Counted from the stretch's first letter, positions 1 to 57,120 are shown. The stretch is DNA of 64,000 nt from Candidatus Riflebacteria bacterium HGW-Riflebacteria-2 (GCA_002839435.1 PGYA01000012.1:1914-65913); one strand, 5' to 3'. Notes: generated by a model not told the origin, from the letters alone. Numbers and translations: made by a program.

Positions 1-45
1 TGTCATCCTGCGACTTCGCCTGGCGTGTTCGCACGGATGACGGCT
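1..45. repeat. Truncated fragment of a dispersed intergenic element. The window begins inside it
   Basis: Inverted arms GTCATCC (3-9) and GGATGAC (34-40). The 15-nt core CTGCGACTTCGCCTG (8-22) is identical to 63253-63267, which lies beside copy 3 of the palindromic element. Confidence 0.3.
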
Positions 46-131
46 GATTGCGACCGAAAATTGCCGATGCATTCAAAGATTGTTCAGGTCCTTGCCGAAG
101 GCTGCCGATGTATTTTCAGAAGGGGAAAAAA

Positions 132-1160
132 ATGACTGCAAAATCCTTGTTCACCTGTGGTTTGTCGGAACTTAAAAAAGTGCTGGCTGAGGCTGGAATG
201 CCTGCATTCCGAGCCAGTCAGATACATGAATGGATCTTCAAGAAGTTTGTTTTCTCGTTCGACGAGATGACGAACATTTCAGTTGCCGACCGTGCACGGC
301 TCAAGGAAGCTTTTCCCAAAATCCTGCCGCCCGTTCAGCGTTTTCTCAAAGACAGCGACGGCACCTGCAAGGTTGTGTTGAAACTGGCTGATGAGGCTCT
401 GATAGAGGCTGTGGCGATACCTGACGAAGACTCGATGACCTTCTGCCTGTCAACCCAGGTCGGTTGTGCAGTTGGTTGCCTGTTCTGCCGCACCGGTGAA
501 TCAGGGTTTACCCGCAATCTGACATCGGAAGAGATTCTTCTACAGGTAATGGTTCTGGTTAAGCGCACCGGTGTCAAACCGACTAATATAGTATTTATGG
601 GAATGGGCGAGCCGTTTTACAATCGGAGGGCCCTGTTTGAGGCGATCGATATGCTTACCGATCCGCAAGGACTGGCGATGGCGACCCGTCGCATTACCAT
701 TTCGACTGCAGGTGTGATCGAGGGCATAATGGAGCTGATCGAGCGGCCTGGAGAAGTTAATCTCGCAGTTTCACTGCATGTGGCCGACGACAATGGTCGC
801 AACGCGCTGGTTCCCATCAACAAACGCTACCCGCTCGCACGGCTGAAAGAAGCTATCAGCACCTACTGCACCAGCACCAGTCGTCGCGTCACGCTTGAAA
901 TGGTTCTTCTGCACAATATCAATGACCAGTATAACGATGCCCTCAATCTGGTCACTTTCTGTGAGGGTTTGCTTGTGCATATTAACATAGTTCGTTTCAA
1001 TCATTTCCCCGGGGCAAAATATCAGCCGGCTTCGGCGCAGAACGAAAAAGAGTTCCGCCGTATCCTCAAAAAAGCCGGTATCGCGGTAACTGTACGAAAA
1101 TCACGCGGGCAGGAAATATTAGCAGCCTGCGGACAGCTGGCAGGAAAAGAAAATGGCTAA
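132..1160 (+). CDS. rlmN: 23S rRNA (A2503-C2) methyltransferase RlmN, a radical SAM enzyme
   Basis: N-terminal IHEWIFKK motif and radical-SAM cluster CAVGCLFC. I set the start at the ATG at 132, preceded by a GGGGA RBS. The tracker start at 48 is an upstream extension. Confidence 0.9.
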   Translation: MTAKSLFTCGLSELKKVLAEAGMPAFRASQIHEWIFKKFVFSFDEMTNISVADRARLKEAFPKILPPVQRFLKDSDGTCKVVLKLADEALIEAVAIPDEDSMTFCLSTQVGCAVGCLFCRTGESGFTRNLTSEEILLQVMVLVKRTGVKPTNIVFMGMGEPFYNRRALFEAIDMLTDPQGLAMATRRITISTAGVIEGIMELIERPGEVNLAVSLHVADDNGRNALVPINKRYPLARLKEAISTYCTSTSRRVTLEMVLLHNINDQYNDALNLVTFCEGLLVHINIVRFNHFPGAKYQPASAQNEKEFRRILKKAGIAVTVRKSRGQEILAACGQLAGKENG

Positions 1161-2310
1161 GAAAAGCGGCGAATCTTGTATTTCTATTCTGTTGAAGATG
1201 ACGATACTTGTTCTCATTCTGGTAATAGTTGTGGTTGCCGGCGTCTTCTTTGCATACCAGAAGCTCAACGATTTTTTTAACCGCGGCGGAACCGTTATTG
1301 TTCCTGACTTCCGTGGTCGTCACGTCGCTGAGATATACAAGAGCCAGCCGGAAGGTATTGAAATAGTGCGGCGTGACGAAAAATACGACGATCGCCATCC
1401 AAAAGATCATGTAATCGCACAGTTTCCTGAGCCCGGCACAGTAGTGAAGCCCGGCAAGAAAGTGCTGCTGTCGATTTCGCTGGGCCTGCAGAAAGTCAAT
1501 GTTCCTGATCTAGTCGGCGCCAACATGCGTGAAGTCGATATGGCATTGATGAATTCGCAGCTGTCAATTGGCGATCGGGCCTATGTCTTTTCTGAAAAGA
1601 TTGCGCCAGATCGTATTGTTGGCCAGTCACCGCTTCCCTCAGAAGAATACGGAGTTAACAAGGAAGTAGATCTGTTGATCAGCCTTGGTCGGCGTCCAGA
1701 ATCATATCCTTTGCCCAGTCTTGTTGGTATCTCGCTGGATGACGGCAAAAACCGGCTGAAAGCCTGGGGTTTCAACTTCGGTCGCATTTTTTCCAAAAAA
1801 GATGCGACGCGTCCGAAATTTCAGGTCATTTCGACCAGCCCGGCGCCTTACACAACGGTACGCAAGGGTGATGTCATCAGCTTTCTGGTTTCATCCGGCG
1901 ATGATCCGGGCACGGCAACAGCTGAGGATCTCAAGCGCTTCGAAGTTTACGCTGGCGCAGTCGCGCAACCGGTCGTCAGCCGGCCGACGCCAACCCCTTC
2001 CCCTGACACGGCAGCAGAACCGCCAAAGATTCTCATCGCTGGCGATAATGTAACAGTGCCGCAGCCGGTAATCCCGCCGCCGCTTATACAAAGCGCTTCA
2101 GAACGAGAGATGAGCTTTGTCATGCCAGACGGATTCATGCCGAAAGAGGTCAAGTTCATTCATATTACCGATACCGGTCGGCAGCAGATTTATGCTGGAG
2201 CACACAAACCGCTCGAACTTGTTAAGGTTAAGGTGCCTCTCGTGCCGAATAGTAAAGTACAGATATATATTAACGATGTTCCCATCGAAGAACGAAGAAT
2301 CGAGCCATAA
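1153..2310 (+). CDS. Membrane-anchored protein with three PASTA domains and a Pro-rich C-terminal region
   Basis: N-terminal TM helix (ILVLILVIVVVAGVFF). Three roughly 65-aa repeats beginning VPDFRG / VPDLVG / LPSLVG and ending ...ISLG or ...SSG, which match the PASTA fold pattern. Overlaps the rlmN stop by 8 nt; RBS AGGAAAAG. Confidence 0.75.
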   Translation: MAKKSGESCISILLKMTILVLILVIVVVAGVFFAYQKLNDFFNRGGTVIVPDFRGRHVAEIYKSQPEGIEIVRRDEKYDDRHPKDHVIAQFPEPGTVVKPGKKVLLSISLGLQKVNVPDLVGANMREVDMALMNSQLSIGDRAYVFSEKIAPDRIVGQSPLPSEEYGVNKEVDLLISLGRRPESYPLPSLVGISLDDGKNRLKAWGFNFGRIFSKKDATRPKFQVISTSPAPYTTVRKGDVISFLVSSGDDPGTATAEDLKRFEVYAGAVAQPVVSRPTPTPSPDTAAEPPKILIAGDNVTVPQPVIPPPLIQSASEREMSFVMPDGFMPKEVKFIHITDTGRQQIYAGAHKPLELVKVKVPLVPNSKVQIYINDVPIEERRIEP

Positions 2311-2336
2311 AGCTGGCAGTCATTCAGGAGGCAGAA

Positions 2337-3587
2337 ATGATCGGTGAAGTAATTAACGGAAAGTACAGAGTAGAAGCTGCTTTCTCTGAAAGTCACATGT
2401 ATGAGATCTTTAGCGCGAGCGAGCTGGATACCGGCGCGACCGTAGTGATGAAGATACTTAAAGAGGAAATGGCCTGCAATTCTGAGCGCGTCAAGGGATT
2501 CAGCGACGAGATCAGGTCGTTTGCCAGCCTGTCGCACCCGCTTATCGCTGAAGTGCTAGATGTTGACATGTATGGTGACCGGCCTTATGTGGTTTCGCAG
2601 CTGGTTAAGGGCGATGATCTCTACAACATCATCAGAAACGAAGCTCTCGGCTTTGCTGAATGCTGCCGGATTATTCAGGAACTTGCCACAGTTCTGCAGC
2701 ATGCTGCCGACCAGAATATCGAGTGTCGCACCATCAAACTGTCTAACGTGCTGCGTGGCAGCGATGGCAAGATTACTGTGCTTTCATTCACGCATCCCCG
2801 TCTCAAGCTTGCCAGTCTAAGTAAGCGTTCGGCTACTTCGGGAATTCACTCTGACCTGTTTTTTCTCGGCGGCACTTTTTACGAAATGCTGACGGGCGAA
2901 TCGCTGATTCGGCGTCGTGGTGGTGTCAACGAGCTGTGGGATCTGAAACTCGAGCAGCGGCTGCGCATCAGGCATGCCGATCTGGCGCCTGAACAGCTGA
3001 CACGGGTCGTCGATTTTGTGCGCAAAACCCTGACGCGTGACATGAAATCGCGTTTCAACAGCCACGAGGAGTTTCTCAAGGCGTTGGCCGATCTCTCAGG
3101 CATTGTCAGAAGTAACGGCATCCGCAGCAAATCGCGCCAGCTTTCTATGGCTTCGCAGGTTGTCGACGCGCTCAATGGCCGCATGTCAAATGTGAACATG
3201 AATATGCCGACCGCCGAAAGCACAGGATCGCGCAGCATGACCGCTGCCCAGGCTCAGGCGCAGGGATACGATCAGGCTGACAACAACATGGTTGCCGGGT
3301 ATGCCCAGACCGCGATTGAGGGCAATCTGGCGCTGGTCGTCGATAATTCTGGCAGAGACCTGCCGCCTGGCGATGAAGATAATGCCACCTGTGATGCCGC
3401 CGCCGAAACTGGTTCTGCCCGCAAGTCGAAGCGCCCGCATCTGCGTCTGCTCAAGCCGAACCATAACGAAGGCGAAGCTCGCGCCGAAGTCTGGCAGGGA
3501 ACTGAAGACGCCCACTGGTTGCGTAATCCGGTGATTTTCATGGGACTCTGTCTCATCGTCATGGTAATGCTCATACTGTTCTGGTGA
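2337..3587 (+). CDS. Ser/Thr protein kinase-like pseudokinase, with a C-terminal TM anchor
   Basis: Kinase fold markers are retained: VVMK lysine, the alpha-C Glu, a hinge YVVSQLVKGDDLY, and the GTFYEMLTGE (APE-like) region. The glycine loop is degenerate (AFSESH). HRD is replaced by ECR and DFG by LSF. A long low-complexity middle region is followed by a C-terminal TM helix PVIFMGLCLIVMVMLILFW. A GGAGG RBS precedes the ATG. Confidence 0.7.
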   Translation: MIGEVINGKYRVEAAFSESHMYEIFSASELDTGATVVMKILKEEMACNSERVKGFSDEIRSFASLSHPLIAEVLDVDMYGDRPYVVSQLVKGDDLYNIIRNEALGFAECCRIIQELATVLQHAADQNIECRTIKLSNVLRGSDGKITVLSFTHPRLKLASLSKRSATSGIHSDLFFLGGTFYEMLTGESLIRRRGGVNELWDLKLEQRLRIRHADLAPEQLTRVVDFVRKTLTRDMKSRFNSHEEFLKALADLSGIVRSNGIRSKSRQLSMASQVVDALNGRMSNVNMNMPTAESTGSRSMTAAQAQAQGYDQADNNMVAGYAQTAIEGNLALVVDNSGRDLPPGDEDNATCDAAAETGSARKSKRPHLRLLKPNHNEGEARAEVWQGTEDAHWLRNPVIFMGLCLIVMVMLILFW

Positions 3588-3591
3588 CGCG

Positions 3592-4248
3592 ATGACCAGA
3601 AATATACTGCTGGCCCCTTCGATTCTGTCTGCCGATTTCGCGCGCATGGCAGAAGAGCTCAAAGTTGTTGAAGATTCTGGTGCCGACTGGGTGCATGTCG
3701 ATGTCATGGATGGGCATTTCGTACCCAACCTGACTTTTGGACCACCTCTGATCAAGGCATACCGCAAGCATACACGCCTGCCGTTTGATGTGCATCTTAT
3801 GATCGAGTCGCCAGAACGCTGGCTCGAGGCCTGGCGCGATGCCGGGGCGGACCGCATCACTTTTCATATCGAAGCCTGTCGGCATGCGCATCGATATCTC
3901 GCCGCCGTTCGCGAGATGGGTCTTGCTTCCGGCATCACGCTGAATCCACAGACCCCGCTATGCTCGATTGAGCATGTTCTGGAAGAGTGCGACCAGGTGC
4001 TGCTGATGACGGTAAACCCGGGTTTTGGCGGCCAGAAATTTATCGAACCGCTTATTGGCAAGATCAGCCGCTTGCGGGCGATGATCGATGAACGCGGCCT
4101 CAAGACGAAGATTCAGGTTGATGGCGGCGTCAGTTTGCAGAATGCGCAAAGAATTAGTGCGGCAGGTGCCGATATATTAGTTATGGGCTCGGCATTTTTT
4201 GCGGCCGAAGACAAAGCTCGCCTGGCGCGGGAAGTGCACAGCCTATAG
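3592..4248 (+). CDS. rpe: Ribulose-phosphate 3-epimerase
   Basis: Motifs DVMDGHFVPNLTFG and MTVNPGFGGQKF. Length 218 aa is typical. Confidence 0.9.
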   Translation: MTRNILLAPSILSADFARMAEELKVVEDSGADWVHVDVMDGHFVPNLTFGPPLIKAYRKHTRLPFDVHLMIESPERWLEAWRDAGADRITFHIEACRHAHRYLAAVREMGLASGITLNPQTPLCSIEHVLEECDQVLLMTVNPGFGGQKFIEPLIGKISRLRAMIDERGLKTKIQVDGGVSLQNAQRISAAGADILVMGSAFFAAEDKARLAREVHSL

Positions 4249-4288
4249 ATAAAGGGCTCAAGGTCGGTTCGTTGAAGATCGAGAAAAA

Positions 4289-4320
4289 CGATTACGATTA
4301 CGAGCACGAAAAGATAGAGG
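4289..4320 (+). promoter_or_regulatory. Leader motif CGATTACGATTACGAGCACGAAAAGATAGAGG immediately upstream of the TPR gene (one of three copies in the window)
   Basis: Direct hexamer repeat GATTAC x2 followed by GAGCACGAR-AAGAT-GAG. Nearly identical sequence occurs at 27178-27227 (minus sense, upstream of a lipoprotein gene) and at 54258-54282. Confidence 0.4.
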
Positions 4321-4329
4321 CAAGTAAAC

Positions 4330-5673
4330 ATGCTGCAACGCCCTGGAAACATTAACGGGCTGCTTGACCAGCTCGAAGAAAAGAGCCGGCAGAATCCGGC
4401 CGATCTCGATCTGCTGCAGAGACTTTCGCGGCTCTACATGCGTCACGGCAATAACAGCGGCGCCGAAACAGTGATCGAAAAAATTCTCAAAAGCGATCCT
4501 GACAACGCACAGGTGATGGTTGAACTGGCTGACTGCCAGATCCGCCGTGGTGCTTACGATGATGCGACCTACAATATCGAACGCGCCCTCGAACTGAAAC
4601 CCGGCATGACTTCTGCCTTTATTGCAATGTCCCGCCTGTATGAGGCGCAGGGTTGCGTGGAAAAGCAGGTTTCTTTTATGATGCGCGCGGCAAACGCCTC
4701 GCCCGACAAGATTGATATACGTCTTTCGCTGGCTGAAATGCTCAAACGCTATGGCGATGTCGGTGGCGCTATCGCTCAGTATAAGCTGATTCTTGAGCAG
4801 CAGAGCGATCTCGAGGCGGCCCTTTTCTCATTGGGCACCCTGCAACTAAGGCAGAATAGTGTTGTTGAAGCAGTCAGCTGTTTTCGCACAATAATTTCCA
4901 ATAATCCAGGCGCTTTCGATGCGCATTTCAATCTGGGCAGCTGCTATTTCCGGCAGCGCAAATACCAGATGGCGGCTGAGCATTTTCGCAGGTCGCAGCG
5001 CCAGCCGGATCTCGCTCAGCGCTCGATGTATCTGATGGCGCAGTGCTATTTAAAACAGCACGAATACGATCAAGCTATCGTTTCGCTCGAAAAACTGCTC
5101 GAGCTCGATGAAAACAATGTTTCTTATCTAAAAAGCCTGGCGGAAGCTTATGAAGCGGCCGGCGAAATTGATATGGCGAGAGATGTCTATCGCAGGCTGG
5201 TCATGGTTGCGCCGGAAAGGCCTGAATTTATGGTGCGCCTGGCATCGCTCACGATCGAACTCGGCGAGCACGATAAGGCTGAAAAAGCTCTGGATCAGCT
5301 GTTCCGGCTGCATCCCGGACATGTCGAAGGCCACCGCATTCTTGGCGATCTCTATGCCGGACGTGGTGATTTCCGCAGTGCGATCGAGGAATATCGCCGT
5401 ACTCTCATGATAAATGAGAACAACGCAAATGTATTTAACTCTCTGGCCAGAGTGTATAAGGCACTCGGCAACACCGAAGAAGAACAGCAGGCGCTTAAAC
5501 GAGCTGCCGATCTCGGTTGTGAAAACCCTGAAATGCTGCTGCGCCTCGGCCAGCTCGAGCGTAAACTACGAATGCCGAGCAGTCTCGACCGCTTTCGCCG
5601 CATCACCGAGCTGGTGCCTGACTCAAACTGCGCCCGCGAAGCCGAATATTTCATCCGGCACAAGGCCGCATAG
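4330..5673 (+). CDS. Tetratricopeptide-repeat (TPR) protein
   Basis: Multiple 34-aa TPR-like repeats along the protein (A..Y....G.Y..A pattern). No catalytic motif recognised. Confidence 0.8.
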   Translation: MLQRPGNINGLLDQLEEKSRQNPADLDLLQRLSRLYMRHGNNSGAETVIEKILKSDPDNAQVMVELADCQIRRGAYDDATYNIERALELKPGMTSAFIAMSRLYEAQGCVEKQVSFMMRAANASPDKIDIRLSLAEMLKRYGDVGGAIAQYKLILEQQSDLEAALFSLGTLQLRQNSVVEAVSCFRTIISNNPGAFDAHFNLGSCYFRQRKYQMAAEHFRRSQRQPDLAQRSMYLMAQCYLKQHEYDQAIVSLEKLLELDENNVSYLKSLAEAYEAAGEIDMARDVYRRLVMVAPERPEFMVRLASLTIELGEHDKAEKALDQLFRLHPGHVEGHRILGDLYAGRGDFRSAIEEYRRTLMINENNANVFNSLARVYKALGNTEEEQQALKRAADLGCENPEMLLRLGQLERKLRMPSSLDRFRRITELVPDSNCAREAEYFIRHKAA

Positions 5674-5704
5674 TTCTTTTCTCATAAGAGTTTAAGAATT
5701 TAAT

Positions 5705-5780
5705 GTCATTGCGAGGAGGGCATCAGCCCGACGCGGCAATCCTATTAGCAGAAGGATTGCTTCGCTTCGCTCGCAATGAC
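5705..5780. repeat. Dispersed palindromic intergenic element, copy 1 (REP/MITE-like)
   Basis: Outer inverted arms GTCATTGCGAG...CTCGCAATGAC. Inner arms GCAATCCT...AGGATTGC. Homologous copies at 56200-56270 and 63334-63414. Sits between convergent gene 3' ends. Confidence 0.55.
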
Positions 5781-5880
5781 AAATAACACCCAGATTCAAA
5801 TGTGACAGAGGACTGGAGACAAGGCTCGCACAAATCCACAGAGCCACAAAGATTAAGGGCACGGGCTGACATTAAAAGGG

Positions 5881-6609
5881 CTAGAACGGGCTGATGGCGA
5901 CTGCGATGGCGATAATCTGCAGGGCAAAGAAGAGCAGGTGAGCGGCGCGGCTGGTTTTTGCATGGCTGCTGAGAATACCTGCTGCAAACACGGGAATGGC
6001 TGCTGCCAGCGAAAACTTTGGCAGCAGGCTGTAGATAAAGATGAAGCTCAGGCAGCCCCAGGCAAAGTCATTGGCCCGGTCGTTGCGAAAACTGGCAATG
6101 TAGGCGATAATTGCTGCTATAACCGGTATTGCCAGCACTTGTCGATCGACAAACGGGCAGACGCCAAGCGGAAAATTCAGGTAAACGTAAAAAATAACCG
6201 CCCAGGCGAAGGGGTTGGGTGATTGTACTTCGTTACGTACAAACAGTACGCTGGCAACGAACCAGATGGCTGAACGCCCGGCCAGCACGATAAAAGTTAA
6301 GCCCAGCCCGACTTTCATGTAACTGAACCCCAGGATCATGGCCATACAGGCCTCGACAACCGGGTATTGCCAGGCAATCGGGGTCTGGCAGTAGCGACAG
6401 CGGCCGCGCAGCGTCAACCAGCTCAAGACTGGTATAAGGTCGATGGCGTGCAACTGGTGATTGCATTTCGGGCAGGCAGATGGCGGAAATATCACAGATT
6501 TGCCGCTGGCCATTCGCAGTATCACGACATTGCTGAAACTGCCGAGAAGACTGCCGAAGATAAAAAAGAATGGTGTCAGTAGTAGTTTGAGAGCTTCGTT
6601 TTCTGCCAT
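5881..6609 (-). CDS. pilD: Type IV prepilin peptidase (A24 family)
   Basis: N-terminal tetra-Cys motif CPKC...CRYC, and a polytopic membrane protein of about 240 aa. Confidence 0.85.
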   Translation of the reverse strand: MAENEALKLLLTPFFFIFGSLLGSFSNVVILRMASGKSVIFPPSACPKCNHQLHAIDLIPVLSWLTLRGRCRYCQTPIAWQYPVVEACMAMILGFSYMKVGLGLTFIVLAGRSAIWFVASVLFVRNEVQSPNPFAWAVIFYVYLNFPLGVCPFVDRQVLAIPVIAAIIAYIASFRNDRANDFAWGCLSFIFIYSLLPKFSLAAAIPVFAAGILSSHAKTSRAAHLLFFALQIIAIAVAISPF

Positions 6610-6791: not shown

Positions 6792-7145
6792 CTACTCAAG
6801 CGGAATCGGACTCTCAACACTACCGTGAATGCCGCATGAAACCATACCATCTCTGATCAATTCTGCACCAGTGATTACACAACCAGCTTCTGCAGGAACA
6901 ATAGTGCTCTTGAGGTATTTGCCTGCTGACAGTGCGCCTTCGTCGTAGTCATTCATCATGGCGTTGGTGTCCATGTTGTACATTTCGACAGCACCCATGA
7001 CGACTCTCTGGTTGGCGAAGCATGCTTTCTGACGAGCCTGTTGACGTGCTTTGCGGAAGTTAGGAATCGCAATAGCGGCCAGGATACCAATAATGGCGAT
7101 AACGATCATAAGTTCGATCAACGTGAAGCCCTTGCGAGATCTCAT
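6792..7145 (-). CDS. pilA: Type IVa pilin (major pilin-like)
   Basis: Prepilin leader MRSRKG|FTLIELMIVIAIIGILAAIAIP, with Glu at +5 and a C-terminal Cys pair. I set the start at the ATG with an AAAGGAG RBS; the tracker start at 7163 lies upstream of that RBS. Confidence 0.85.
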   Translation of the reverse strand: MRSRKGFTLIELMIVIAIIGILAAIAIPNFRKARQQARQKACFANQRVVMGAVEMYNMDTNAMMNDYDEGALSAGKYLKSTIVPAEAGCVITGAELIRDGMVSCGIHGSVESPIPLE

Positions 7146-7195
7146 AATAAGAACTCCTTTCAATAAAAAATAACTTTAGAACTTCGGTCACCTTA

Positions 7196-7928: not shown

Positions 7929-9656
7929 TCATTGCTGCCGTATTTTTCTGAACAAAACAAGCCAGAATCCCGATGCCAGTATGAAAAACAGGTACCCCGT
8001 CATTCTGCCTTTCGGCCTGACTCGATAAAGGTTGAGAGTGCTGTTGCCTTTCGGCAGAGTGATCAGCATAGTTCCGTCATCATGCGGTGCAATCTGCAAA
8101 TTTTGCTGCTGCACCGCACCGGATGAGTCTGTGTCGGTTATTGCCAGGCGCCAGTAAAGGTCATAATGCGTTAGTATGTTAACCGGCATTGCCTGAGTAA
8201 TATTCTCAAACCGGTAATTTGCCCAGCTGTTTCCCGATTCTGCTGGCGAGAAAATTTGCCCGTCAGGTAGAACCCTGAATTGGTGAGGTTGCCCGGAGAA
8301 CTCGCTTAACCCTCTGTATTTGGGCAGAGCGTTTGACAGAAACAGCGGATAGTTGCCTCTTTTCAGATAAACATCGAGCAAACCTTCCGGCCAGGGCTTG
8401 CCGGGCAGCGTGAAGATGGCGATCAGCCAGAGCCATGGCAGAATCATGCTGATAAATATCACGGCTGGTTTCCTGGCAAACAGGGCGTTTAAGCAGCTGC
8501 TGGCACCGGCAAGTGTTACCATCGAAGCAAGAAAAATGACGCGCCAGGGAAACTGAACATAATGTAGTCCTGGCAGAAGATCCCAGAGAAATTTTGATGG
8601 GCTGAAAGCCATCAGCAGCAGTGACAGTCCGGAAAGCAGTAGAGTCTTTTCGTAGCTCGAGGTTTCGTTTTTGAGCAGTGCAAACATGCCAATTCCGAAG
8701 ACCACAATACACAAGAATAAGAGCCATGGCCTGAAGTGCTCAAACCTTGAGCCGGAGTCAAGAAGGTATATGTCCTGGTGATTGGCAGAATCGAAGCTGA
8801 GATAGTTGAATATGAGGCCGAACCCACGGTAAACCGGTCTCGTCATCTGGTTCTCTATGATCAGCGGATTGTCGAGAAATGGTGTGTGTTTTCCACCGGG
8901 CGCCAGATTTGGCATGCAGGCGTCATTGAAGACTGTCTCGCTCATTGTTCCTATTGCCGGCATGATATATGGAGCCGCGAAAAAGAAGGAAAAACCGGCG
9001 GCTGCGAAGATAAGCGCCAGCGGCCGAAATCGCTTTTGCTGAGTATAACGGCAACAGAACAGGCCAAAAATAATGCTGGCGTAGAAAGACAGCAAGGTTG
9101 TCTGTAGATGGGTGTAAGCCATGACTCCAATGGTCAGTGCCAGGATATGCCAGCCATACTTTTCCTGCCTGGCAATTTTCTGCCAGCCGAGAATCACCCA
9201 TGGGAACAGGAAATACGCACAGACGTTCTGAAATTGAAAGGCAAAATGCAAAAAGAGCACGATGAGAGGGTTCGTCAGCATCAGAAGAAGCGCCGGCTTG
9301 AAGCTAAGTCGGCTTTTGTCGGTAAGATACCAGGCTCCCGCAAAACCAAGTAAAAAGAAAAGCAAAACTGTCAGCTTCGCCGCAATATATACAGGTGCAC
9401 CCAGAAACATGAAGAGCATTGCCACGAAAACTGGCAATGGCCCAAGGTAGCGAAAAAGCGGAACGCCACGCCCTTCAAAAGGTACTGCAAACCAGTCAGG
9501 AAAGCCAGGGTCGTCAGCAAAAGCCTGGGTAAAGCCGACACAGGTGCGTAGATGCACGGCGCTTTCAAATGCGTAGGGAAATGGCTGTCGCCAGAAAAAT
9601 GGCAGGAATATCAGCAGAAGGCAGAGCGCCAGCATTGATAGAATGTATTTATTCAT
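7929..9656 (-). CDS. Polytopic membrane protein, putative GT-C-type glycosyltransferase (divergent paralog of the tandem pair)
   Basis: At least 10 predicted TM helices. Shares conserved blocks with the two genes at 9807-13420 (DPGFPDW..GRG loop; FQFQNVCAYFLFPW vs FLFQNLCAYFLSPW). Has an extracytoplasmic C-terminal domain followed by a final TM helix. Confidence 0.55.
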   Translation of the reverse strand: MNKYILSMLALCLLLIFLPFFWRQPFPYAFESAVHLRTCVGFTQAFADDPGFPDWFAVPFEGRGVPLFRYLGPLPVFVAMLFMFLGAPVYIAAKLTVLLFFLLGFAGAWYLTDKSRLSFKPALLLMLTNPLIVLFLHFAFQFQNVCAYFLFPWVILGWQKIARQEKYGWHILALTIGVMAYTHLQTTLLSFYASIIFGLFCCRYTQQKRFRPLALIFAAAGFSFFFAAPYIMPAIGTMSETVFNDACMPNLAPGGKHTPFLDNPLIIENQMTRPVYRGFGLIFNYLSFDSANHQDIYLLDSGSRFEHFRPWLLFLCIVVFGIGMFALLKNETSSYEKTLLLSGLSLLLMAFSPSKFLWDLLPGLHYVQFPWRVIFLASMVTLAGASSCLNALFARKPAVIFISMILPWLWLIAIFTLPGKPWPEGLLDVYLKRGNYPLFLSNALPKYRGLSEFSGQPHQFRVLPDGQIFSPAESGNSWANYRFENITQAMPVNILTHYDLYWRLAITDTDSSGAVQQQNLQIAPHDDGTMLITLPKGNSTLNLYRVRPKGRMTGYLFFILASGFWLVLFRKIRQQ

Positions 9657-9806: not shown

Positions 9807-11594
9807 TTGCCTGTAAATAACAGGGGTTTCTGGTTGGGTTTTGCCGTGTTGGCCCTCATTCTGGGTCTGGGTTACTGGCTCTGGTTATCTCCGGTTGTTG
9901 GGGCGGCAGATGTTCGCGTTCATGTCCGTTCAGCCTGGGTATATTATGATGGGCTGGTAGATGGGCTTGATTACCCTGACTGGGATGCCACCGCCTACGG
10001 TGGACGTGGCAACCCGGCGCCGCGATTTATTGGGGCAGCGCCGCTTCTTTTTGCTTCCTTTCTGCAGATCTTTGGAATTGCGGCACTGGCAGCGGTTAAA
10101 ATTGTGGTTGCAATGTTTGCTCTGCTTGGCCTGGCCGGTGTCTATTTCTGGCTTGTCTCTATTGGCTCCGCTACAGCGTTTCCGTGGGCGGCATTGTTTT
10201 TTATGGTTCATCCGCTGGTCAGTTTTCATCTGGGCGTGGCTTTTCTTTTTCAGAATCTATGTGCATATTTTTTATCGCCGTGGCTATGGTGCGCGGCCGT
10301 GGCGGTCTGGCGGGGAGATCGCCGGGCTTATATGTTTGGCGGTCTGGCAATGGGTTTTATTGCCTGGTCACATCTTTACTTTGCTTTTATGGTTGGCTGC
10401 GCCTGGGTTTTGCTCATGTTGGTCAGCTGGCTTAAAACCAGGCAGCGCCGCTTCTTAACGGCTACTTTTCTTGTGCCTGTTCTGGCTATGATGTTTTCCG
10501 CTCCATATCTGCTGCCGGCAATGTTGACCAGTGGCGATGTGTATTACGAAGAAGTTTCGAAAGTTCTGCGCCCGGGTCGGCCAGGCTGTGAATTTATAGA
10601 TGAGCCGGTTGTTAATGATAAAAATCAGGTTTTATCATGGTGGCAGGCCTTGCAGGAGTTGACAAGATCCCCTGAAGAAGGTTTGCCCGCCCACCTGAGA
10701 AATACAGGCCAAGTAACTTCAATTTTGCAGATGAAATCATCAGAAAACCGATTGAAGGCTTTGCGGCCCTGGCTATTACTCTGTCTTATGTTGTGTTTTA
10801 TTCTTGCCTGCGTCGGCAGCTTGCGGCGTGATATCGTTGATAAAGAAAGCCCCGTGCCCTTATGGATTTGGCTTTTTGTCGGTAGTTGCTGTGCCTTTAT
10901 GAGTCTGCGATTCGCTTTTGTGATTTACTCTGTGCTGCCTGGCGCGATGGCTGTTCAATTTCCTTTCCGCTGGCTGCTGCCGGCCTTCGGTCTCTGGATT
11001 CCTCTGATAGCCGCCGGTGTGATGCCAGCGAATGTGGCAATTACTTCGGGATTTCGCGGCCAATTCATGGCATGGTTTTCGAGATTCTTTCTGGTGATAT
11101 TTTTACTGCTGGGAGTGCTTTTGCAGAGTCTGTTCTGGGTTCTTCCAGATGATTCCATGAAAAGCTTTTTTGCGGCACCTGGTCACCTGGCTCCATTTTA
11201 CCCGCGTGCTGTTCCGAAAACACGCGATGTCCCCGCTGTGGCCGGAGTTCCTCATCTTATCGATATCGCCTCGGGAAGCGGTGTCATTACCGGTTATCAG
11301 GCCGGCGTTGCCTGGTTCGAGGCACGGGGTGAAGCGCAGACGCCAATAGAACTGCATATAAATACTCATTATGACCCGGGCTGGCGCTTTACCAATTTAC
11401 GCACAGGTTCTGTTAAACCTCGTGTCGATGAGAAAGATGGAACCATGTTGTTGCATATTCCGGCTGGCAGCTGGTTTCTGACGATGGAACGGGCCTCGCC
11501 CAGGGGCAGATCGATCGGCTGGTTACTGATGCTTGTTTCTCTTTTTATAATGGCATTTTCTGCCAGGCAAGGCAGTAGACATGAGGATTGTTGA
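9807..11594 (+). CDS. Polytopic membrane protein, putative GT-C-type glycosyltransferase (tandem paralog 1)
   Basis: TTG start with a GGGAGA RBS. Conserved loop DGLDYPDWDATAYGGRGNPAPRF, multiple TM helices, a C-terminal beta-rich domain (INTHYDPGWRF) and a terminal TM helix. Confidence 0.6.
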   Translation: MPVNNRGFWLGFAVLALILGLGYWLWLSPVVGAADVRVHVRSAWVYYDGLVDGLDYPDWDATAYGGRGNPAPRFIGAAPLLFASFLQIFGIAALAAVKIVVAMFALLGLAGVYFWLVSIGSATAFPWAALFFMVHPLVSFHLGVAFLFQNLCAYFLSPWLWCAAVAVWRGDRRAYMFGGLAMGFIAWSHLYFAFMVGCAWVLLMLVSWLKTRQRRFLTATFLVPVLAMMFSAPYLLPAMLTSGDVYYEEVSKVLRPGRPGCEFIDEPVVNDKNQVLSWWQALQELTRSPEEGLPAHLRNTGQVTSILQMKSSENRLKALRPWLLLCLMLCFILACVGSLRRDIVDKESPVPLWIWLFVGSCCAFMSLRFAFVIYSVLPGAMAVQFPFRWLLPAFGLWIPLIAAGVMPANVAITSGFRGQFMAWFSRFFLVIFLLLGVLLQSLFWVLPDDSMKSFFAAPGHLAPFYPRAVPKTRDVPAVAGVPHLIDIASGSGVITGYQAGVAWFEARGEAQTPIELHINTHYDPGWRFTNLRTGSVKPRVDEKDGTMLLHIPAGSWFLTMERASPRGRSIGWLLMLVSLFIMAFSARQGSRHEDC

Positions 11595-11602
11595 GAACAA
11601 CT

Positions 11603-13420
11603 ATGCCGGCAGGTAGCAAACGGATCTGGTTCGCTTTTGCCGTTATCTCGCTGCTTATGGGGCTGGGATACTGGTTGTGGCTCTCGCCTATTGCCGGAGC
11701 GTTGGACATTCACGTTCATATCCGCTCAGCCTGGGTTTTTTATATGGGCCTGGCGGATGGCCTGAGCTACCCTGACTGGGATGCCACTGCCTACGGTGGT
11801 CGTGGCAACTCAATGCCACGCTTCCTTGGGCCATTACCACTGGTTGTGGCGTCATTCTTTCAATTGATGGGAATTGAAGTAGTGCTGGCAGTTAAAATTC
11901 TGGTTGTACTCTTTGCTGTGCTGGGTTTGCTTGGTGTTTATTACTGGCTTGCCTCTATTGGTCTTGCCAGAACTTTTCCGTGGGCGGCACTGTTTTTTAT
12001 GGTCAACCCGCTGATCAGTTTTCATCTGGGCGTGGCGTTTTTTTTCCAGAATCTGTGTGCCTATTTTTTGTCGCCGTGGCTCTGGTATGCTGCCGTTATG
12101 GTGTGGCGAAAAGAGCGCCGGGCCATTACTGCCGGAGCTCTGGTTTTAGGTTTTATCGCTTTGTCGCACCTTTACTTTGCCTTGATGGTAGGATATGCCT
12201 GGTTCTTGTTGATGCTGATAAGCTGGCTGAAACTCAGAGAGCGGCGTTTCTGGATAGCGGCGTTAGCTGTCCCTGTACTTGCCATGCTTGTTGCGGCTCC
12301 CTATATTTTACCGGCAATGCTTACCAGCAGTGAAGTTTACTACGCAGAAGTCGCTCAAATTTTACGTCCGGGGCAGCGGGTGCTTGGGTGTGAATTCATT
12401 GACGATCCGGTTCTTGATGAAAAAAAGAACGCTTTGCCCTGGCATCAGGCATTGTTTGAGCTGACAAAATCACCAGATGACGTATCATCGCCGGATATGA
12501 ATAGCACAGATGAAATTATGTCGCTTCTGCAGGTTATTTCATCAGAGCATCAGCTGCATATTCTACGCCCCTGGCTTTTACTCAGTCTTGTTCTGTGTTT
12601 TATTCTCGCCTGTGCCGGCAGTTTGCGGCAGGATGCCGTTGTTGACAAAAGCCATATTCCGTTGTGGATGTGGCTTTTCGTCGGTGGGTGCTGTGCCATA
12701 ATGAGTCTTCGCTTTTCTTACGGCATTTATTCCATACTGCCGGGGGCAATGGCTGTTCAATTCCCTTTTCGCTGGCTGTTGCCGGCCTTTGGGCTTTGGC
12801 TTCCGCTGGCAGGTGTGGCGGCTGGTTTCTTAGATACTGCCAGCTTTCGTTTAAAGCTTATTGTCTGGGTGGCAAGAATTTTGTTCCTGGTGATACTGCT
12901 GCTGGGGCTCGGGTTTCAGGGCTTCTTCTGGGCTCTTCCTGATGCTTCTTTGAAAAGTTCTTTTGCCGCTCCCGGCTATCTCGAGCCATTTTGCCCCCGC
13001 TCCGTCCCCAAAATGCGTGGAGTTCCTTATGTGGCTGGTGTTCCACATCGTATTCATATTGCTTCCGGCAGCGGAGTCATAACAGACTACCAGTCAGGCG
13101 TCGCATGGCTGCAGGCACAAGGCGATGCGCATACACCAGTTGAGCTTCATATCAATACTCATTATGACCCCGGCTGGAGACTTACCATGTCTAGCACTGG
13201 CCCGATTCAGCCTATTGTCAACAAAAACGATGGTACCATGCTGTTAAAGATTCCGGCTGGTGCCTGGCAGCTGACGATGGAAAGGGCATCGCCGGCAGGT
13301 CGAACGATCGGCTGGCTGCTGATGCTTCTATCTCTTTTAATCATGTTTCTTTCTTCCAGGCCGAAGCAGCGCGATAGGACAGAACTTACGCTCATGAAAA
13401 ACCCGCCTGCGCCCTTATGA
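11603..13420 (+). CDS. Polytopic membrane protein, putative GT-C-type glycosyltransferase (tandem paralog 2)
   Basis: More than 55% identical by eye to 9807-11594 over its full length (DGLSYPDWDATAYGGRGNSMPRF; INTHYDPGWRL). ATG at 11603, 8 nt after the upstream stop. The tracker start at 11588 is a TTG overlapping the upstream gene. Confidence 0.6.
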   Translation: MPAGSKRIWFAFAVISLLMGLGYWLWLSPIAGALDIHVHIRSAWVFYMGLADGLSYPDWDATAYGGRGNSMPRFLGPLPLVVASFFQLMGIEVVLAVKILVVLFAVLGLLGVYYWLASIGLARTFPWAALFFMVNPLISFHLGVAFFFQNLCAYFLSPWLWYAAVMVWRKERRAITAGALVLGFIALSHLYFALMVGYAWFLLMLISWLKLRERRFWIAALAVPVLAMLVAAPYILPAMLTSSEVYYAEVAQILRPGQRVLGCEFIDDPVLDEKKNALPWHQALFELTKSPDDVSSPDMNSTDEIMSLLQVISSEHQLHILRPWLLLSLVLCFILACAGSLRQDAVVDKSHIPLWMWLFVGGCCAIMSLRFSYGIYSILPGAMAVQFPFRWLLPAFGLWLPLAGVAAGFLDTASFRLKLIVWVARILFLVILLLGLGFQGFFWALPDASLKSSFAAPGYLEPFCPRSVPKMRGVPYVAGVPHRIHIASGSGVITDYQSGVAWLQAQGDAHTPVELHINTHYDPGWRLTMSSTGPIQPIVNKNDGTMLLKIPAGAWQLTMERASPAGRTIGWLLMLLSLLIMFLSSRPKQRDRTELTLMKNPPAPL

Positions 13421-13539: not shown

Positions 13540-14439
13540 ATGAATAGAAAGACTGAAATTGAAAAAAGAGGAATCTCGATCGTTATTCCGGCATATAACG
13601 AAGAGCATTCAATCGCTGGAACTGTCGAACATACTTACGCTGTTCTTTCTTCCTACCCAGGGTTGCCTTTTGAGATCATCGTGGTTGACGATGGTTCAAC
13701 CGATAACACTGCGGCTAACGCTCCCATAGAAAAATGTATTCTCTATCAGCACCCCAAAAACTACGGATATGGGCGCACTTTATTGCTTGGCGTCGGCAAG
13801 GCGCGCTATCCATTTGTCGGCATCATCGACGCAGATAACACCTATAATCCAGAGATTTTCCGGCAGATGATACCGTTGATGGATATTTACGACATGGTCA
13901 TCGGCGCCCGGCAGATCAAAGATCAGACCGTGGTTGTTAAGATTTTGCGAAGGCTGTTGAAGTTTCTGCTTTATTTCTTTTGCGAGCACGTATCTCTCGA
14001 CCCGAACAGTGGCATCAGAATTTTCAAGAGAGCTCTGGTAGAGCAGGGTGGTCACCTTTTCAGCAAAGGGTTCTCCTTTTCGACATCTTTAACCTTTTTT
14101 GCCGCACTCAATCATCGTTTTATCGAATACATTCCGATCGAATATGGAGAACGAACAGGTGTTTCCAAAGTGAAGCATCTTAGAGACTCTATCAGGACTT
14201 TTCTTCTGATAGTCAGCATGTCGTTGATTTACCGCCCGGTCAAGTGCTTTTCAAGTCTTCTTCTGGTTTTTGCGGCAGGTGTAAGCACGCTGGCATCTTT
14301 TAAAGGAAAAATGGAACGAGAGACGTTTCTGGGGTTCATATTCTCTCTTGGGATCGGGGTTCTTACCCTGGCAGTCGCATTTTTAGCATTCATTCAAGGA
14401 AAGATGTATGAACACACCTTATCAGGACCAAGGACCTGA
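13540..14439 (+). CDS. GT2-family glycosyltransferase, polyprenyl-phosphate sugar synthase (DPM1/ArnC-like) with C-terminal TM helices
   Basis: ISIVIPAYNEE...VVDDGSTDNT and a DAD motif. Two C-terminal TM helices. Confidence 0.85.
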   Translation: MNRKTEIEKRGISIVIPAYNEEHSIAGTVEHTYAVLSSYPGLPFEIIVVDDGSTDNTAANAPIEKCILYQHPKNYGYGRTLLLGVGKARYPFVGIIDADNTYNPEIFRQMIPLMDIYDMVIGARQIKDQTVVVKILRRLLKFLLYFFCEHVSLDPNSGIRIFKRALVEQGGHLFSKGFSFSTSLTFFAALNHRFIEYIPIEYGERTGVSKVKHLRDSIRTFLLIVSMSLIYRPVKCFSSLLLVFAAGVSTLASFKGKMERETFLGFIFSLGIGVLTLAVAFLAFIQGKMYEHTLSGPRT

Positions 14440-15952
14440 CAAACCACTTGTAATTCTGATTCAGCCGCAGATGGGACTCTCCGGCGATTTTTCCCGACAT
14501 CTTCCTCTGAGCCTGTTATACGTGGCCGCGCCTCTGACAAAGATGTCAGTAGATATCGAGATTCTCGATACAAGAGTGCTGGAGGGAAACTGGCGCGAGG
14601 CCCTGCAGAAACTTTTACGGCGTAAGCCGATCTGGGTAGGGTTTACGGTTATGGCCGGGTACCCGGTCGCCCATTCACTCGAGATATCGAGATTTATCAA
14701 AAAGCATTCAGACAGTAGAATCGTCTGGGGCGGGGCAATGCCGACTACCGATGCAGTCTCGTGCCTGAGCGAGAATTCGGTTGATTTTGCGGTTGCCGGC
14801 AGTGGGATAGACGCTACCAGGCTGCTCACAGAAGCTATTTTGCAGGGGCAGACCGACAATAAAGACCTTCTCGGCAAAATTCCCGGTCTGGCCTATAAAA
14901 TAGCCGGCGAGCATTTTTTTAACGGCAGATATCATGGTTTTGAGCACGTTACCTATCGCGATCTGCCATATCATCTGATCAGAGATTATTCAGTCTACGG
15001 CCAGATCGGTTCGAAAGACCGTGTTTTCCCTATTTATAGTGCTTATGGCTGCCCGTACCGCTGTGCTTTCTGTATTTCGCCGGCCTTGTATCGTGAATTT
15101 TCACCCAAGTGGGTTCCTGTGGCCATAGAAGAGGTTGTCGATCACATTGCTTTTCTGCAGAGCAAATATGGCGCGACCAACATTTATTTTTACGATGACG
15201 ACTCTTTCGTTAATATTGAACATGTCAGAGCCATCGCCAACTCATTGAAACGTCGAAACATGCATGTTAAGCTGAGTTTTCGCGGCGCCCGCGTCGATGA
15301 AATCAAGCGCATGGACGATGCTTTTCTCGATCTGCTCAGCGAAACTGGGACAGAAATGCTGCATATCGGCGTTGAGTCAGGTAGTCAGAGAGTTCTCGAT
15401 CTTTTCCAAAAGGGAATAACCGTCGCGGATATTATCGAGATCAATCGCAAGCTGGCCAGGCACAAGAAGTTGCTTGCTGCCTACAACTGGATCATCGGCA
15501 CTCCCACCGAAACCATCGCAGAGATCAGACAGACAACCAGGCTTTTGACATTGCTTATCAAAGAGAATCCGCGTTGCTTTATTTTTCAGCCTAATATTTT
15601 CAGGGTCGTTCCCGGATCGGTTCTTGGTGAGACAGCAAAATCCATGGGTTACCGGTCTCCGGCAAATCTTGATGAATGGATAACTGCTGAAATTGAACAG
15701 AATATTTCTTCGCCATGGCTTTCTGATGAAGTGAAGAAGCTTATTGAAATGCTTCAGGTAGTTGCCTATTTTGTTGACGAAAAGGCGGCGCTGCTTTTAC
15801 AGACAGGGTCGATAAAAGATCGTCTGATCAAGTTCGCGTCAAAACTATATCAACCTCTGGCCAGATTCCGTTTTAAAAGCGGCTTCTCAGGCCTGCTGAT
15901 CGAAGCCAGACTCTTTTTTCTTGCACAAAAGCTGCTCAAATGGTGGCGCTAA
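14408..15952 (+). CDS. B12-binding-domain radical SAM enzyme (class B rSAM)
   Basis: Cobalamin-binding-like N-terminal domain, then the CxxxCxxC radical-SAM cluster motif in YSAYGCPYRCAFC. Overlaps the GT2 stop. Confidence 0.8.
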   Translation: MNTPYQDQGPDKPLVILIQPQMGLSGDFSRHLPLSLLYVAAPLTKMSVDIEILDTRVLEGNWREALQKLLRRKPIWVGFTVMAGYPVAHSLEISRFIKKHSDSRIVWGGAMPTTDAVSCLSENSVDFAVAGSGIDATRLLTEAILQGQTDNKDLLGKIPGLAYKIAGEHFFNGRYHGFEHVTYRDLPYHLIRDYSVYGQIGSKDRVFPIYSAYGCPYRCAFCISPALYREFSPKWVPVAIEEVVDHIAFLQSKYGATNIYFYDDDSFVNIEHVRAIANSLKRRNMHVKLSFRGARVDEIKRMDDAFLDLLSETGTEMLHIGVESGSQRVLDLFQKGITVADIIEINRKLARHKKLLAAYNWIIGTPTETIAEIRQTTRLLTLLIKENPRCFIFQPNIFRVVPGSVLGETAKSMGYRSPANLDEWITAEIEQNISSPWLSDEVKKLIEMLQVVAYFVDEKAALLLQTGSIKDRLIKFASKLYQPLARFRFKSGFSGLLIEARLFFLAQKLLKWWR

Positions 15953-15955
15953 GAA

Positions 15956-37180: not shown

Positions 37181-37288
37181 AGCAATGGTTCCTCCGGGTG
37201 GAACTGATAGTTTTCGACTAGTCAGATAGTTCATCGGCAATTCCTGACGAAATCCGGAGTAAAAAAAATGATATGGCAATATCTGGCT

Positions 37289-56369: not shown

Positions 56370-57119
56370 TCAGGATTTTATGCGGTCGAGGAGGGGTTTT
56401 AGTTTGCGGGCGGCGGCGAGGGTGGCGAGGCCGGCGCCGGCGGCAATGGAGAGCGGCAGCCATAGTTTGCATGAATAGGCGCGGTTGTAGTGCTCGAAAA
56501 GTTCTATTTCATGCGGGATGCCGGCGGTCAGGTCGGTTTCATCGAGCCTGAGCAGGATGGCGCTGCAGTCATCGCCGTCGTAAACAGAGGTTGTCTGTTG
56601 CTCAAAAGTTGCGAAACCATTGACGTTGGTTGCGGCGAGCATGCCGTTTAGTGCGGGCTGCAGTTGCTGCGAGCTGAGCGCTGCCGCGGCGCCTTCAGAT
56701 ACGAGCATAAGCGCTGTACCGGTTGCGGCCGGAACGGCAAACTCGCGTTGTTCGAGCCAGTTCTGTTCTGGCAGGGCAGAGAGCAGGCGGCAGGCACCGG
56801 TTGCGAAAACGGCGACGGTGCCGCGGCTGATCCAGGCAGCAGCGACGTCGCAGCGACTGTTTGTGAGTTCAGGGGTTGCATTCTGGCTGGCGAGTTCAAA
56901 CGCCTCGCGTAGTCGGAAAAGGTTTTCGTCGCCGCCGGTTACCGGCGCGATTTCGCGCAGGCGCTGGAAGACAGCGGCGGCAGTGTATTCTGCCAGCCGC
57001 TTCCCGGCCAGGCCATGGCCGTCAGCGATGATTGCCAGGCGCAGATCAGGGTCAACGAACAGGTGATCCTGGTTGTCGTCTCTGATGCTGCCGGTATGCG
57101 AGAAAGATTGAACCTGCAT
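56370..57119 (-). CDS. PP2C-family Ser/Thr phosphatase with C-terminal TM helix
   Basis: SHTGSIRDDNQDHLFV...LAIIADGHG (PP2C motifs 1 and 2) and a C-terminal hydrophobic helix LWLPLSIAAGAGLATLAAA. ATG 1 nt after the upstream gene's stop. The tracker start at 57170 is an extension. Confidence 0.75.
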   Translation of the reverse strand: MQVQSFSHTGSIRDDNQDHLFVDPDLRLAIIADGHGLAGKRLAEYTAAAVFQRLREIAPVTGGDENLFRLREAFELASQNATPELTNSRCDVAAAWISRGTVAVFATGACRLLSALPEQNWLEQREFAVPAATGTALMLVSEGAAAALSSQQLQPALNGMLAATNVNGFATFEQQTTSVYDGDDCSAILLRLDETDLTAGIPHEIELFEHYNRAYSCKLWLPLSIAAGAGLATLAAARKLKPLLDRIKS

Positions 57120-57120
57120 G

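Follow-up and report, generated by a model that had tools for sequence, protein, structure and literature searches.

PASTA kinases hold a central place in the regulation of cell-wall synthesis, division and β-lactam tolerance among the Firmicutes and Actinobacteria. The extent to which this role depends on catalysis, as against scaffolding or localization, is debated. Among bacterial relatives that have lost catalytic residues, seven pseudokinase families have been catalogued (ActPs1-3, GLW, CP1, DYD and DLHK; 2025 kinome atlas, bioRxiv 10.1101/2025.01.12.632604; review PMC12599244), and each of the seven shows substitution of the VAIK-motif lysine, either throughout or in some of its members (bioRxiv 10.1101/2025.01.12.632604). 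Neither the atlas nor the review mentions Riflebacteria or a pseudokinase split from PASTA, and our full-text literature searches found no paper that joins Riflebacteria with PASTA and none on stand-alone PASTA partners of pseudokinases. Here we describe such a pair. It lies in a 64,000-nucleotide stretch of DNA (the window) from Candidatus Riflebacteria bacterium HGW-Riflebacteria-2, of the phylum Candidatus Rifleibacteriota (GCA_002839435.1 PGYA01000012.1:1914-65913), where a gene for a PASTA sensor protein is followed directly by one for a tail-anchored, kinase-like protein. Judged by its motifs, the second protein belongs to a previously uncatalogued, Lys-retaining pseudokinase family that forms part of a split, permuted and, by prediction, catalytically dead PASTA receptor.

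The first gene (1153-2310, plus strand) encodes a bitopic protein of 385 residues. Its transmembrane (TM) helix spans residues 16-34 (1198-1254; hydropathy 3.16; helix 9-42 in the AlphaFold2 (AF2) model). A conserved cytoplasmic stub, MxKKxSESCLSILxKM, with its basic KK..K residues, precedes the helix, and an invariant KLNxFFNRGG follows it. Because basic residues stand before the TM helix and PASTA repeats after it, the N-terminus is predicted to be inside and the C-terminus outside, the same topology as in fused PASTA kinases. Three PASTA repeats occupy residues 48-110, 114-180 and 184-248 (1294-1896). They are recognized by Pfam (PF03793, E 2.2e-26, 92 bits against a gathering score of 23.2), AF2 and Foldseek alike, and structurally match the PASTA domains of PknB and PrkC. 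A proline-rich disordered linker (residues 267-314; 1951-2094; predicted local distance difference test (pLDDT) below 50), variable in length and sequence among orthologues, then leads to a C-terminal six-strand immunoglobulin (Ig)-like β-domain (residues 317-382; 2101-2298; pLDDT 84-90, with 81 for the whole model). This terminal domain is the most conserved part of the protein (mean column identity 82%); it has no match in Pfam and none by sequence in the PDB. The top Foldseek match of the protein is 3py9 (349 columns), the whole extracellular region of Staphylococcus aureus PrkC, which comprises three PASTA repeats plus an Ig-like domain. Weak Ig, FN3 and filamin fold matches probably correspond to the terminal β-domain. 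The family numbers more than 120 clusters, every one of them PASTA-only.

The second gene (2337-3587, plus strand) encodes a kinase-like protein of 416 residues. It scores 56.9 bits against Pfam Pkinase (PF00069; gathering score 31.7, E 2.7e-15), with the better of two matched stretches covering profile positions 15-140 only, from the N-lobe through the catalytic loop. The AF2 model, with pLDDT above 90 over most of residues 1-290, reaches further: Foldseek aligns 255-291 columns to the kinase domains of PknA, PknB and Stk1 with target-normalised TM-scores of 0.65-0.78, and the MviN pseudokinase and PknI are among the other fold matches. As modelled, the protein has a complete bilobal Hanks-kinase fold, C-lobe included. 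Moreover, the two open reading frames (ORFs) match complementary parts of NF033483, the profile of Stk1-family PASTA kinases (positions 1-151 and 334-563; 97.8 and 113.7 bits, far below the family cutoff of 450), and the latter part aligns to residues 16-247 of the PASTA protein, beginning at the TM helix.

What has become of the active site can be read from alignments with StkP and Streptomyces PknB. The pseudokinase domain comprises residues 1-262 (2337-3122), and its ratio of nonsynonymous to synonymous substitution rates (dN/dS) is 0.02-0.09. In place of the G-x-G-G of the Gly-loop it has S17-E-S-H20, part of a SESHMYE motif (2385-2405), so that all glycines are lost. The HRD equivalent is C130-R131-T132 (2724-2732), without the catalytic Asp, and the DFG equivalent is S150-F151-T152 (2784-2792), without the metal-binding Asp. 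The activation loop is about 15 residues shorter and the APE motif is gone. Other landmarks are kept: β3 Lys39 (2451-2453) and αC Glu58 (2508-2510), both invariant in the family, the αF Asp (D173), and Lys134 and Asn137 (the latter at 2745-2747) of the catalytic loop, which reads I-E-C130-R131-T132-I-K134-L-S-N137. The protein would thus be a pseudokinase, predicted to lack phosphotransfer. At the back-to-back dimer interface of Mycobacterium tuberculosis PknB, R10 and D76 would correspond to K9 and D75 (both conserved) and L33 to T32, a tentative comparison that is not used as evidence.

Beyond the kinase fold, a conserved helical extension (residues 263-292; 3123-3212; AF2 helix 243-279; dN/dS 0.00-0.15) carries the motif RQLSMASQVVDALNGRMSNVN / RQLSMASQVVDALNG, of which an (S/T)A(S)xVV-like remnant can be recognized in distant relatives. 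A disordered juxtamembrane linker of 80 residues follows (residues 293-372; 3213-3452; pLDDT below 50; dN/dS 0.14-0.41), containing the short conserved islands EGNLALVVDNS and RPHLRLVKP. The last 19 residues (398-416; 3528-3584) form a single TM helix (hydropathy 2.75; AF2 helix 398-415), there is no signal peptide, and the protein is therefore predicted, in insertion and topology, to be tail-anchored. Its C-terminus is LILFW in nearly all orthologues (the window and the 26 complete Riflebacteria genes considered below), and the helix is followed by no extracytoplasmic residues.

The pair stands in a run of four tightly packed plus-strand genes arranged head to tail. Upstream is rlmN (48-1160; TIGR00048, E 3.5e-103, 345 bits against an NCBIfam equivalog cutoff of 290), the 3′ end of which overlaps the start of the PASTA gene by 8 nucleotides; downstream is rpe (3592-4248, plus strand; TIGR01163, E 9.7e-86, 286 bits, above the equivalog cutoff), which starts 4 nucleotides past the pseudokinase stop. 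The 26-nucleotide gap between the two genes of the pair contains an AGGAGG ribosome-binding site (2325-2330, plus strand), read directly, 6 nucleotides before the pseudokinase ATG. Promoter-like and terminator-like matches in positions 1-6000 are in no excess over shuffles, and none falls in this gap. Neither a PP2C gene nor rsgA lies between rlmN and rpe in the window locus. Both proteins are 100% identical to existing HGW-Riflebacteria-2 records (CVV42_06455 and CVV42_06460). Public records name the family members "protein kinase", "serine/threonine protein kinase", "hypothetical protein" or "PASTA domain-containing protein"; since the catalytic residues are missing, the kinase names mislead.

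This arrangement recurs in every Riflebacteria species genome recovered. Scanning one genome per species, with 64 kb in view here and about 13 kb per relative, we found 27 Riflebacteria loci besides the window, 37% to 86% identical to it and containing 26 complete pseudokinase genes. rlmN lies upstream of the pair in 27/27, giving the same rlmN-PASTA-pseudokinase order throughout, and rpe follows in 26/27, the remaining locus stopping at a contig edge. Gaps between the PASTA and pseudokinase genes are 17-72 nucleotides and those between pseudokinase and rpe −1 to 17, but 96 in one locus (L026). All 26 complete genes share the motif states of the window: none has the HRD Asp, the DFG Asp or the Gly-loop glycines, and all keep Lys39, Glu58 and Asn137. 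The HRD-Asp position is occupied by T, N or S across this set, S150 at the DFG-Asp position is invariant, and the replacement motifs SESHMYE and LSFTHPRL are near-invariant. Pairwise dN/dS is 0.05-0.16 for the whole pseudokinase, 0.03-0.08 for the PASTA protein and 0.02-0.05 for rpe. The pseudokinase is under strong purifying selection.

At 90% identity the pseudokinase family forms about 93 clusters, and its named members are all Riflebacteria or Ozemobacteraceae except one labelled Erysipelotrichia. Below the family, scores fall sharply, from E 1e-69 to 1e-14, to ordinary kinases. Four loci with this Riflebacteria-specific operon (L005, L015, L021 and L022) come from metagenome-assembled genomes deposited as Erysipelotrichia, Candidatus Methylomirabilis and Candidatus Avigastranaerophilus, which suggests that these bins are mislabelled or contaminated.

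The pair also occurs outside the Riflebacteria. Among the matches listed by an exhaustive profile search over 1.84 billion representatives are 16 members of the family, full-length or fragmentary, and four more distant relatives with a tail anchor; the others look like ordinary kinases. The four short relatives (P0263, P0273, P0286 and P0298) are 26-29% identical; P0263 and its relatives are annotated as Candidatus Muiribacteriota. A metagenome scan with the distant-relative profile, for which the back-translated patterns were generic, added a single new member (L036), the other 22 of its 23 best loci being ordinary active-type kinases. In all, five distant loci, at 22-29% identity, contain the same PASTA-then-pseudokinase pair, and three of the five are Muiribacteriota or close to a Muiribacteriota-named protein. 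The gene order is DUF116-PASTA-pseudokinase-rpe in L028 and L036, rsmB-PASTA-pseudokinase-rpe in L031, rsmB-rlmN-PASTA-(small ORF)-pseudokinase-ispH-rpe in L029 and PASTA-pseudokinase in L030, so that rpe lies downstream in four of the five. The contig of L029 also has WaaA- and LpxL-type genes. In that locus ispH (LytB) is inserted between pseudokinase and rpe, and a 134-residue ORF is called between the PASTA and pseudokinase genes (5566-5970); it matches nothing in Pfam, gives only poor alignments and is probably a spurious call.

Homology between the Riflebacteria and the distant lineages extends to both partners. The distant pseudokinases have no Gly-loop, keep the Lys, show x-R-T/N/H for HRD and F-x-x-P-R-S for DFG (with S, N, K or G in place of the DFG Asp), and have a short activation loop and a C-terminal TM helix. 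They also share E18, F151, P154 and R155. PASTA partners of the Muiribacteriota type are built in the same way from end to end, with an FFNRG-like motif following the TM helix and with the terminal β-domain, but have no proline linker. Adjacency and order hold in 33/33 loci over 22-100% identity, with 4-nucleotide overlaps in L028 and L031, and in neighbour-joining of the kinase domains the pseudokinases form one clade in 97/100 bootstraps. Conservation of the pair is strong and spans at least two candidate phyla.

Where did it come from? Fused kinase-PASTA proteins are the top non-family matches of the distant-relative profile search. We examined two, both active-type, and found them in def-fmt-DUF116-Zn peptidase-rsmB-rlmN-PP2C-[kinase-PASTA]-rsgA-rpe (L032) and rlmN-PP2C-[kinase-PASTA]-rpe (L033). 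These contexts match that of prpC-prkC-cpgA, the Firmicutes operon that adjoins rpe in Bacillus subtilis (PMC6449344). Moreover, when the terminal β-domain was searched as a profile, it matched the C-termini of the fused PASTA kinases P0399 (E 2.8e-11) and P0401 (E 1.5e-5); in the 609-residue kinase of L032 the match falls at residues 546-608 (E 2.8e-11). The pair therefore fills the rlmN-rpe slot in place of PP2C-kinase-(rsgA), and its halves together amount to the ancestral kinase-TM-PASTA×3-β-domain protein. From this agreement of domains and position, we identify the two genes as the fission products of a PrkC/Stk1-type PASTA receptor kinase, still in the ancestral chromosomal slot. Loss of the partner phosphatase from that slot fits the loss of catalysis. 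The simplest route would be a tandem duplication of the kinase-TM-PASTA gene, after which the first copy shed its kinase part and the second its PASTA part. Such duplication and reciprocal loss accounts for both the reversed gene order and the presence of a TM helix on each half. No intermediates, either split but catalytic or fused but dead, are found among the nearest short kinases, which are canonical and active-type (P0094, P0101, P0411, P0419, P0426 and P0428); genomic context was read for P0094 alone, and no PASTA gene adjoins it.

Much of this had been anticipated by an earlier note on the same DNA, made from the sequence alone. Its central proposal, a PknB/PrkC-like kinase split into a TM-PASTA protein and then a tail-anchored pseudokinase in the rlmN...rpe slot, agrees with the domain, fold and synteny evidence, and the two ORFs lie where it placed them, with an N-terminal TM helix and three PASTA repeats on one and a C-terminal TM helix on the other. 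It was right that the Gly-loop glycines are lost and the VAIK Lys and αC Glu kept, as the StkP and Streptomyces PknB alignments confirm. It was right, too, about the missing HRD and DFG aspartates, although it set both triplets one residue out of register (ECR for CRT and LSF for SFT), a slip that leaves the conclusion unchanged. It had allowed that the second ORF might prove not to be a kinase, or that a frameshift might have broken a normal gene; what we found is a kinase fold, above the Pkinase gathering score and in the AF2/Foldseek comparison, and orthologous split pairs in 27 Riflebacteria and five distant loci. Its account of the neighbourhood as conserved in both Firmicutes and Actinobacteria holds for the Firmicutes-type operon but not for Actinobacteria, whose pknB locus is a different one (PMC6449344; PMC6554272).

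How might a divided receptor work? The system probably signals without phosphorylation. We lean, with reservations, towards a two-subunit receptor in which the bitopic pair would assemble, the ectodomain would sense and the pseudokinase would relay the signal non-catalytically. Assembly in the membrane would proceed via the conserved TM and juxtamembrane segments, as is suggested by the conservation of both regions beyond hydrophobicity and by the fact that the genes are never separated. The PASTA/β-domain ectodomain would bind peptidoglycan precursors or fragments, or a periplasmic partner, and this signal may shift the oligomeric or conformational state of the pseudokinase. The latter would then serve cytoplasmic partners as a scaffold or an allosteric switch, without catalysis, offering its kinase-fold surface, the conserved 263-292 helix and the linear motifs of its linker. 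Peptidoglycan-fragment sensing and scaffolding are plausible by homology and by conservation.

Several points weigh against this two-subunit receptor. The retained Lys39, Glu58, Lys134 and Asn137 and the near-invariant SESHMYE and LSFTHPRL motifs would fit nucleotide or other ligand binding, or a new activity, as well as pure scaffolding. Physical interaction of the pair is a prediction from conservation and adjacency, and muropeptides or lipid II are putative ligands of the PASTA repeats, by homology. Active Hanks kinases, FHA proteins or PP2Cs may be encoded elsewhere in these genomes, of which 64 kb here and about 13 kb per relative were covered. Finally, the grouping of the pseudokinases with PASTA kinases is weak, at 56/100 bootstraps in a tree built by neighbour-joining only.

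The alternatives differ in what they ask of each protein. That the pair is an artefact or in decay, a frameshifted or misassembled normal PknB gene or the remnant of a pseudogene, has a probability close to nil, and nothing was found in its favour. We rejected it on synteny in 27 genomes, identical motif states and dN/dS well below 1. In 33 independent assemblies the ORFs are intact and share this architecture, and the second gene carries its own ribosome-binding site. Indeed, with PASTA preceding kinase no frameshift could rebuild a kinase-TM-PASTA gene, and a split seen in 27 other Riflebacteria genomes and five distant loci is not a frameshift. A subtler alternative is that the two proteins are genuine but independent, the PASTA protein being a periplasmic peptidoglycan-binding or localization factor (for example, a regulator of a hydrolase or synthase), the pseudokinase unrelated to it and their adjacency a relic. 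The PASTA protein is the more conserved of the two, its distal β-domain most of all, which suggests a periplasmic partner, and an isolated PknB PASTA domain is reported to have kinase-independent effects in mycobacteria (PMC4632501). Yet the pair has stayed together in 33/33 loci while its flanks changed (DUF116 or rsmB for rlmN; ispH inserted), and both TM segments are conserved beyond simple hydrophobicity; we consider independence very unlikely.

Two further alternatives accept the pair and dispute what the pseudokinase does. It may not be inert: its remodelled site could bind a nucleotide or ligand as a switch, or have acquired a new enzyme activity, as in AMPylation by SelO or glutamylation by SidJ. 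Pseudokinase folds with alternative catalysis are documented (PMC12599244), and the retention of Lys39, Glu58, Lys134 and Asn137, the near-invariance of SESHMYE and LSFTHPRL in Riflebacteria, the persistence of E18, F151, P154 and R155 in distant relatives and a domain dN/dS (0.02-0.09) as low as that of an enzyme all speak for it. We nevertheless hold this to be unlikely, because the Asp of HRD, that of DFG and every glycine of the Gly-loop were lost together, the activation loop is truncated, the residue in place of the HRD Asp varies (T, N, S or H) and no candidate new catalytic residue was found. Its most specific form, in which SESHMYE, LSFTHPRL and Lys39/Glu58/Lys134/Asn137 would make up a new ligand or catalytic centre controlled by the PASTA/Ig-like subunit of a phosphorylation-independent receptor, seems to us just as doubtful; if true, PASTA kinases would have given rise to a new signalling chemistry, conserved in two or more candidate phyla. 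Alternatively, the pseudokinase could serve mainly as phospho-acceptor and docking platform for another Hanks kinase, an active one whose gene lies elsewhere, which would leave the system phosphorylation-dependent. For this there is a precedent in MviN (Rv3910), in which PknB phosphorylates the pseudokinase domain, which then recruits FhaA (PMC12599244); the MviN structures 3uqc and 3otv are among the fold matches, and the long disordered linker contains Ser/Thr residues and conserved islands. It is improbable all the same. No other kinase or canonical PP2C is present in the 64-kb window and the gene calls of the five distant loci include none (no search aimed at FHA genes was made), PP2C is gone from the ancestral slot in every genome, and no conserved Thr motif was found in the linker.

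The one candidate phosphatase in the window deserves a separate account. A PP2C-like ORF lies on the minus strand at 56370-57170 (56370-57119 from the first ATG). It scores below threshold against PP2C_2 (17 bits against a gathering score of 24) and PppA (E 0.011), but when a canonical PP2C was searched against the window ORF set with phmmer it was the sole PP2C-like ORF (E 2.7e-5). RxxNQD, DGHG, GD and GDD are kept, ATG stands in place of SDG and about 40 residues are missing, so that this may be a pseudophosphatase. The earlier note had taken it for the relocated partner of the kinase. We find this unsupported: the ORF is about 53 kb away, sub-threshold and degenerate, and nothing in the window ties it to the PASTA locus. 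The TM helix (at the C-terminus) and the PilB-like neighbour that the note described are both there; the coordinates it gave are those counted from the first ATG, and the strand is minus. The neighbour, which the ORF overlaps by 50 nucleotides, is a 1167-residue PilB/T2SSE-type ATPase (57121-60624, minus strand; MshEN and T2SSE, E 2e-129), extended at its C-terminus by about 600 residues, which contain three repeats with a common FKPWQF motif. A second, ordinary PilB of 618 residues is encoded at 21995-23851 (minus strand).

Adjoining rpe is a gene for a TPR protein (4330-5673, plus strand; TPR Pfam matches). It is kept in those Riflebacteria loci that reach far enough and absent in L028, L029 and L036. 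The TPR protein is a conserved neighbour in Riflebacteria only, at most a putative member of the PASTA-pseudokinase system. Just downstream of the rpe and TPR genes are a prepilin-peptidase-like protein that matches the N-terminal A24_N_bact domain only (5881-6609, minus strand) and a type IV pilin with an N-methylation motif (6792-7163, minus strand). Three paralogous large membrane proteins with sub-threshold PTPS_related matches (7929-9656, minus; 9807-11594, plus; 11588-13420, plus) adjoin a GT2 glycosyltransferase, a B12-binding radical SAM protein, an asparagine synthase and a TPR protein (13540-19674), and the region looks like a surface-glycan or glycosylation cluster. Two giant minus-strand ORFs of 3336 and 4020 residues (27269-37279 and 38123-50185) contain bacterial Ig-like repeats (Big_13, Big_5 and FlgD_ig) and have weak matches near their C-termini to Por_Secre_tail, the C-terminal sorting domain of the type IX secretion system; between them is a 250-residue ORF with no Pfam match. 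A VWA-domain protein (51782-53449, plus strand) has, in its C-terminal half, three near-identical repeats of about 45 residues (…GY.GxMVDGKWHGQRICIHSRAN.YDLETFEHGV…).

A receptor that has been cut at the membrane and has discarded catalysis along with its phosphatase, while both halves remain under strong purifying selection in two or more candidate phyla, speaks for an important role of the PASTA-kinase scaffold beyond catalysis. It is also a clear example of gene fission with permutation, probably via duplication and reciprocal loss. All carriers are uncultured, so tests will need heterologous expression.

Allosteric signalling by kinase folds that miss catalytic residues is familiar from the eukaryotic pseudokinases STRADα, KSR and HER3, to which the window protein bears a functional analogy only, with no specific homology. 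In bacteria, YukC/EssB is described as a membrane pseudokinase that serves as a structural scaffold of the Firmicutes type VIIb secretion system (PMC9600267). It shares the bitopic layout with a cytoplasmic pseudokinase fold, a likeness drawn by description; unlike the window protein, it continues beyond the TM helix into an extracellular domain of its own, is part of a secretion machine in another genomic context and has no PASTA partner. The M. tuberculosis MviN/Rv3910 pseudokinase (ActPs3) is similar in membrane attachment, in fold (3uqc and 3otv, E ~5e-13) and in its shortened activation loop (bioRxiv 10.1101/2025.01.12.632604), and is tied to cell-wall biology. However, it is actinobacterial, is fused to a MurJ flippase and an extracellular carbohydrate-binding domain and lacks the β3 Lys (VALT), whereas the window protein, only 14% identical to it, keeps Lys39, is tail-anchored and is paired with PASTA. 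The seven catalogued families are likewise conserved, lineage-restricted, degenerate Hanks-type domains, many of them membrane-associated. By their descriptions they are set apart from the present family, in which Lys39 is invariant, and none is described as split from PASTA.

The closest likeness is to the PASTA kinases themselves (Stk1/PrkC/StkP/PknB; NF033483; 'KAPD' of the kinome atlas). The kinase fold is shared, with StkP, PknA, Stk1 and PknB the closest; so are the membrane topology and an ectodomain that, like that of S. aureus PrkC (3py9), ends in an Ig-like domain behind three PASTA repeats; and so is the slot between rlmN (or rsmB) and rpe. Unlike these kinases, however, this receptor is made as two polypeptides in permuted order, each with a TM helix of its own, its catalytic motifs are lost, and PP2C and rsgA are missing from beside it.

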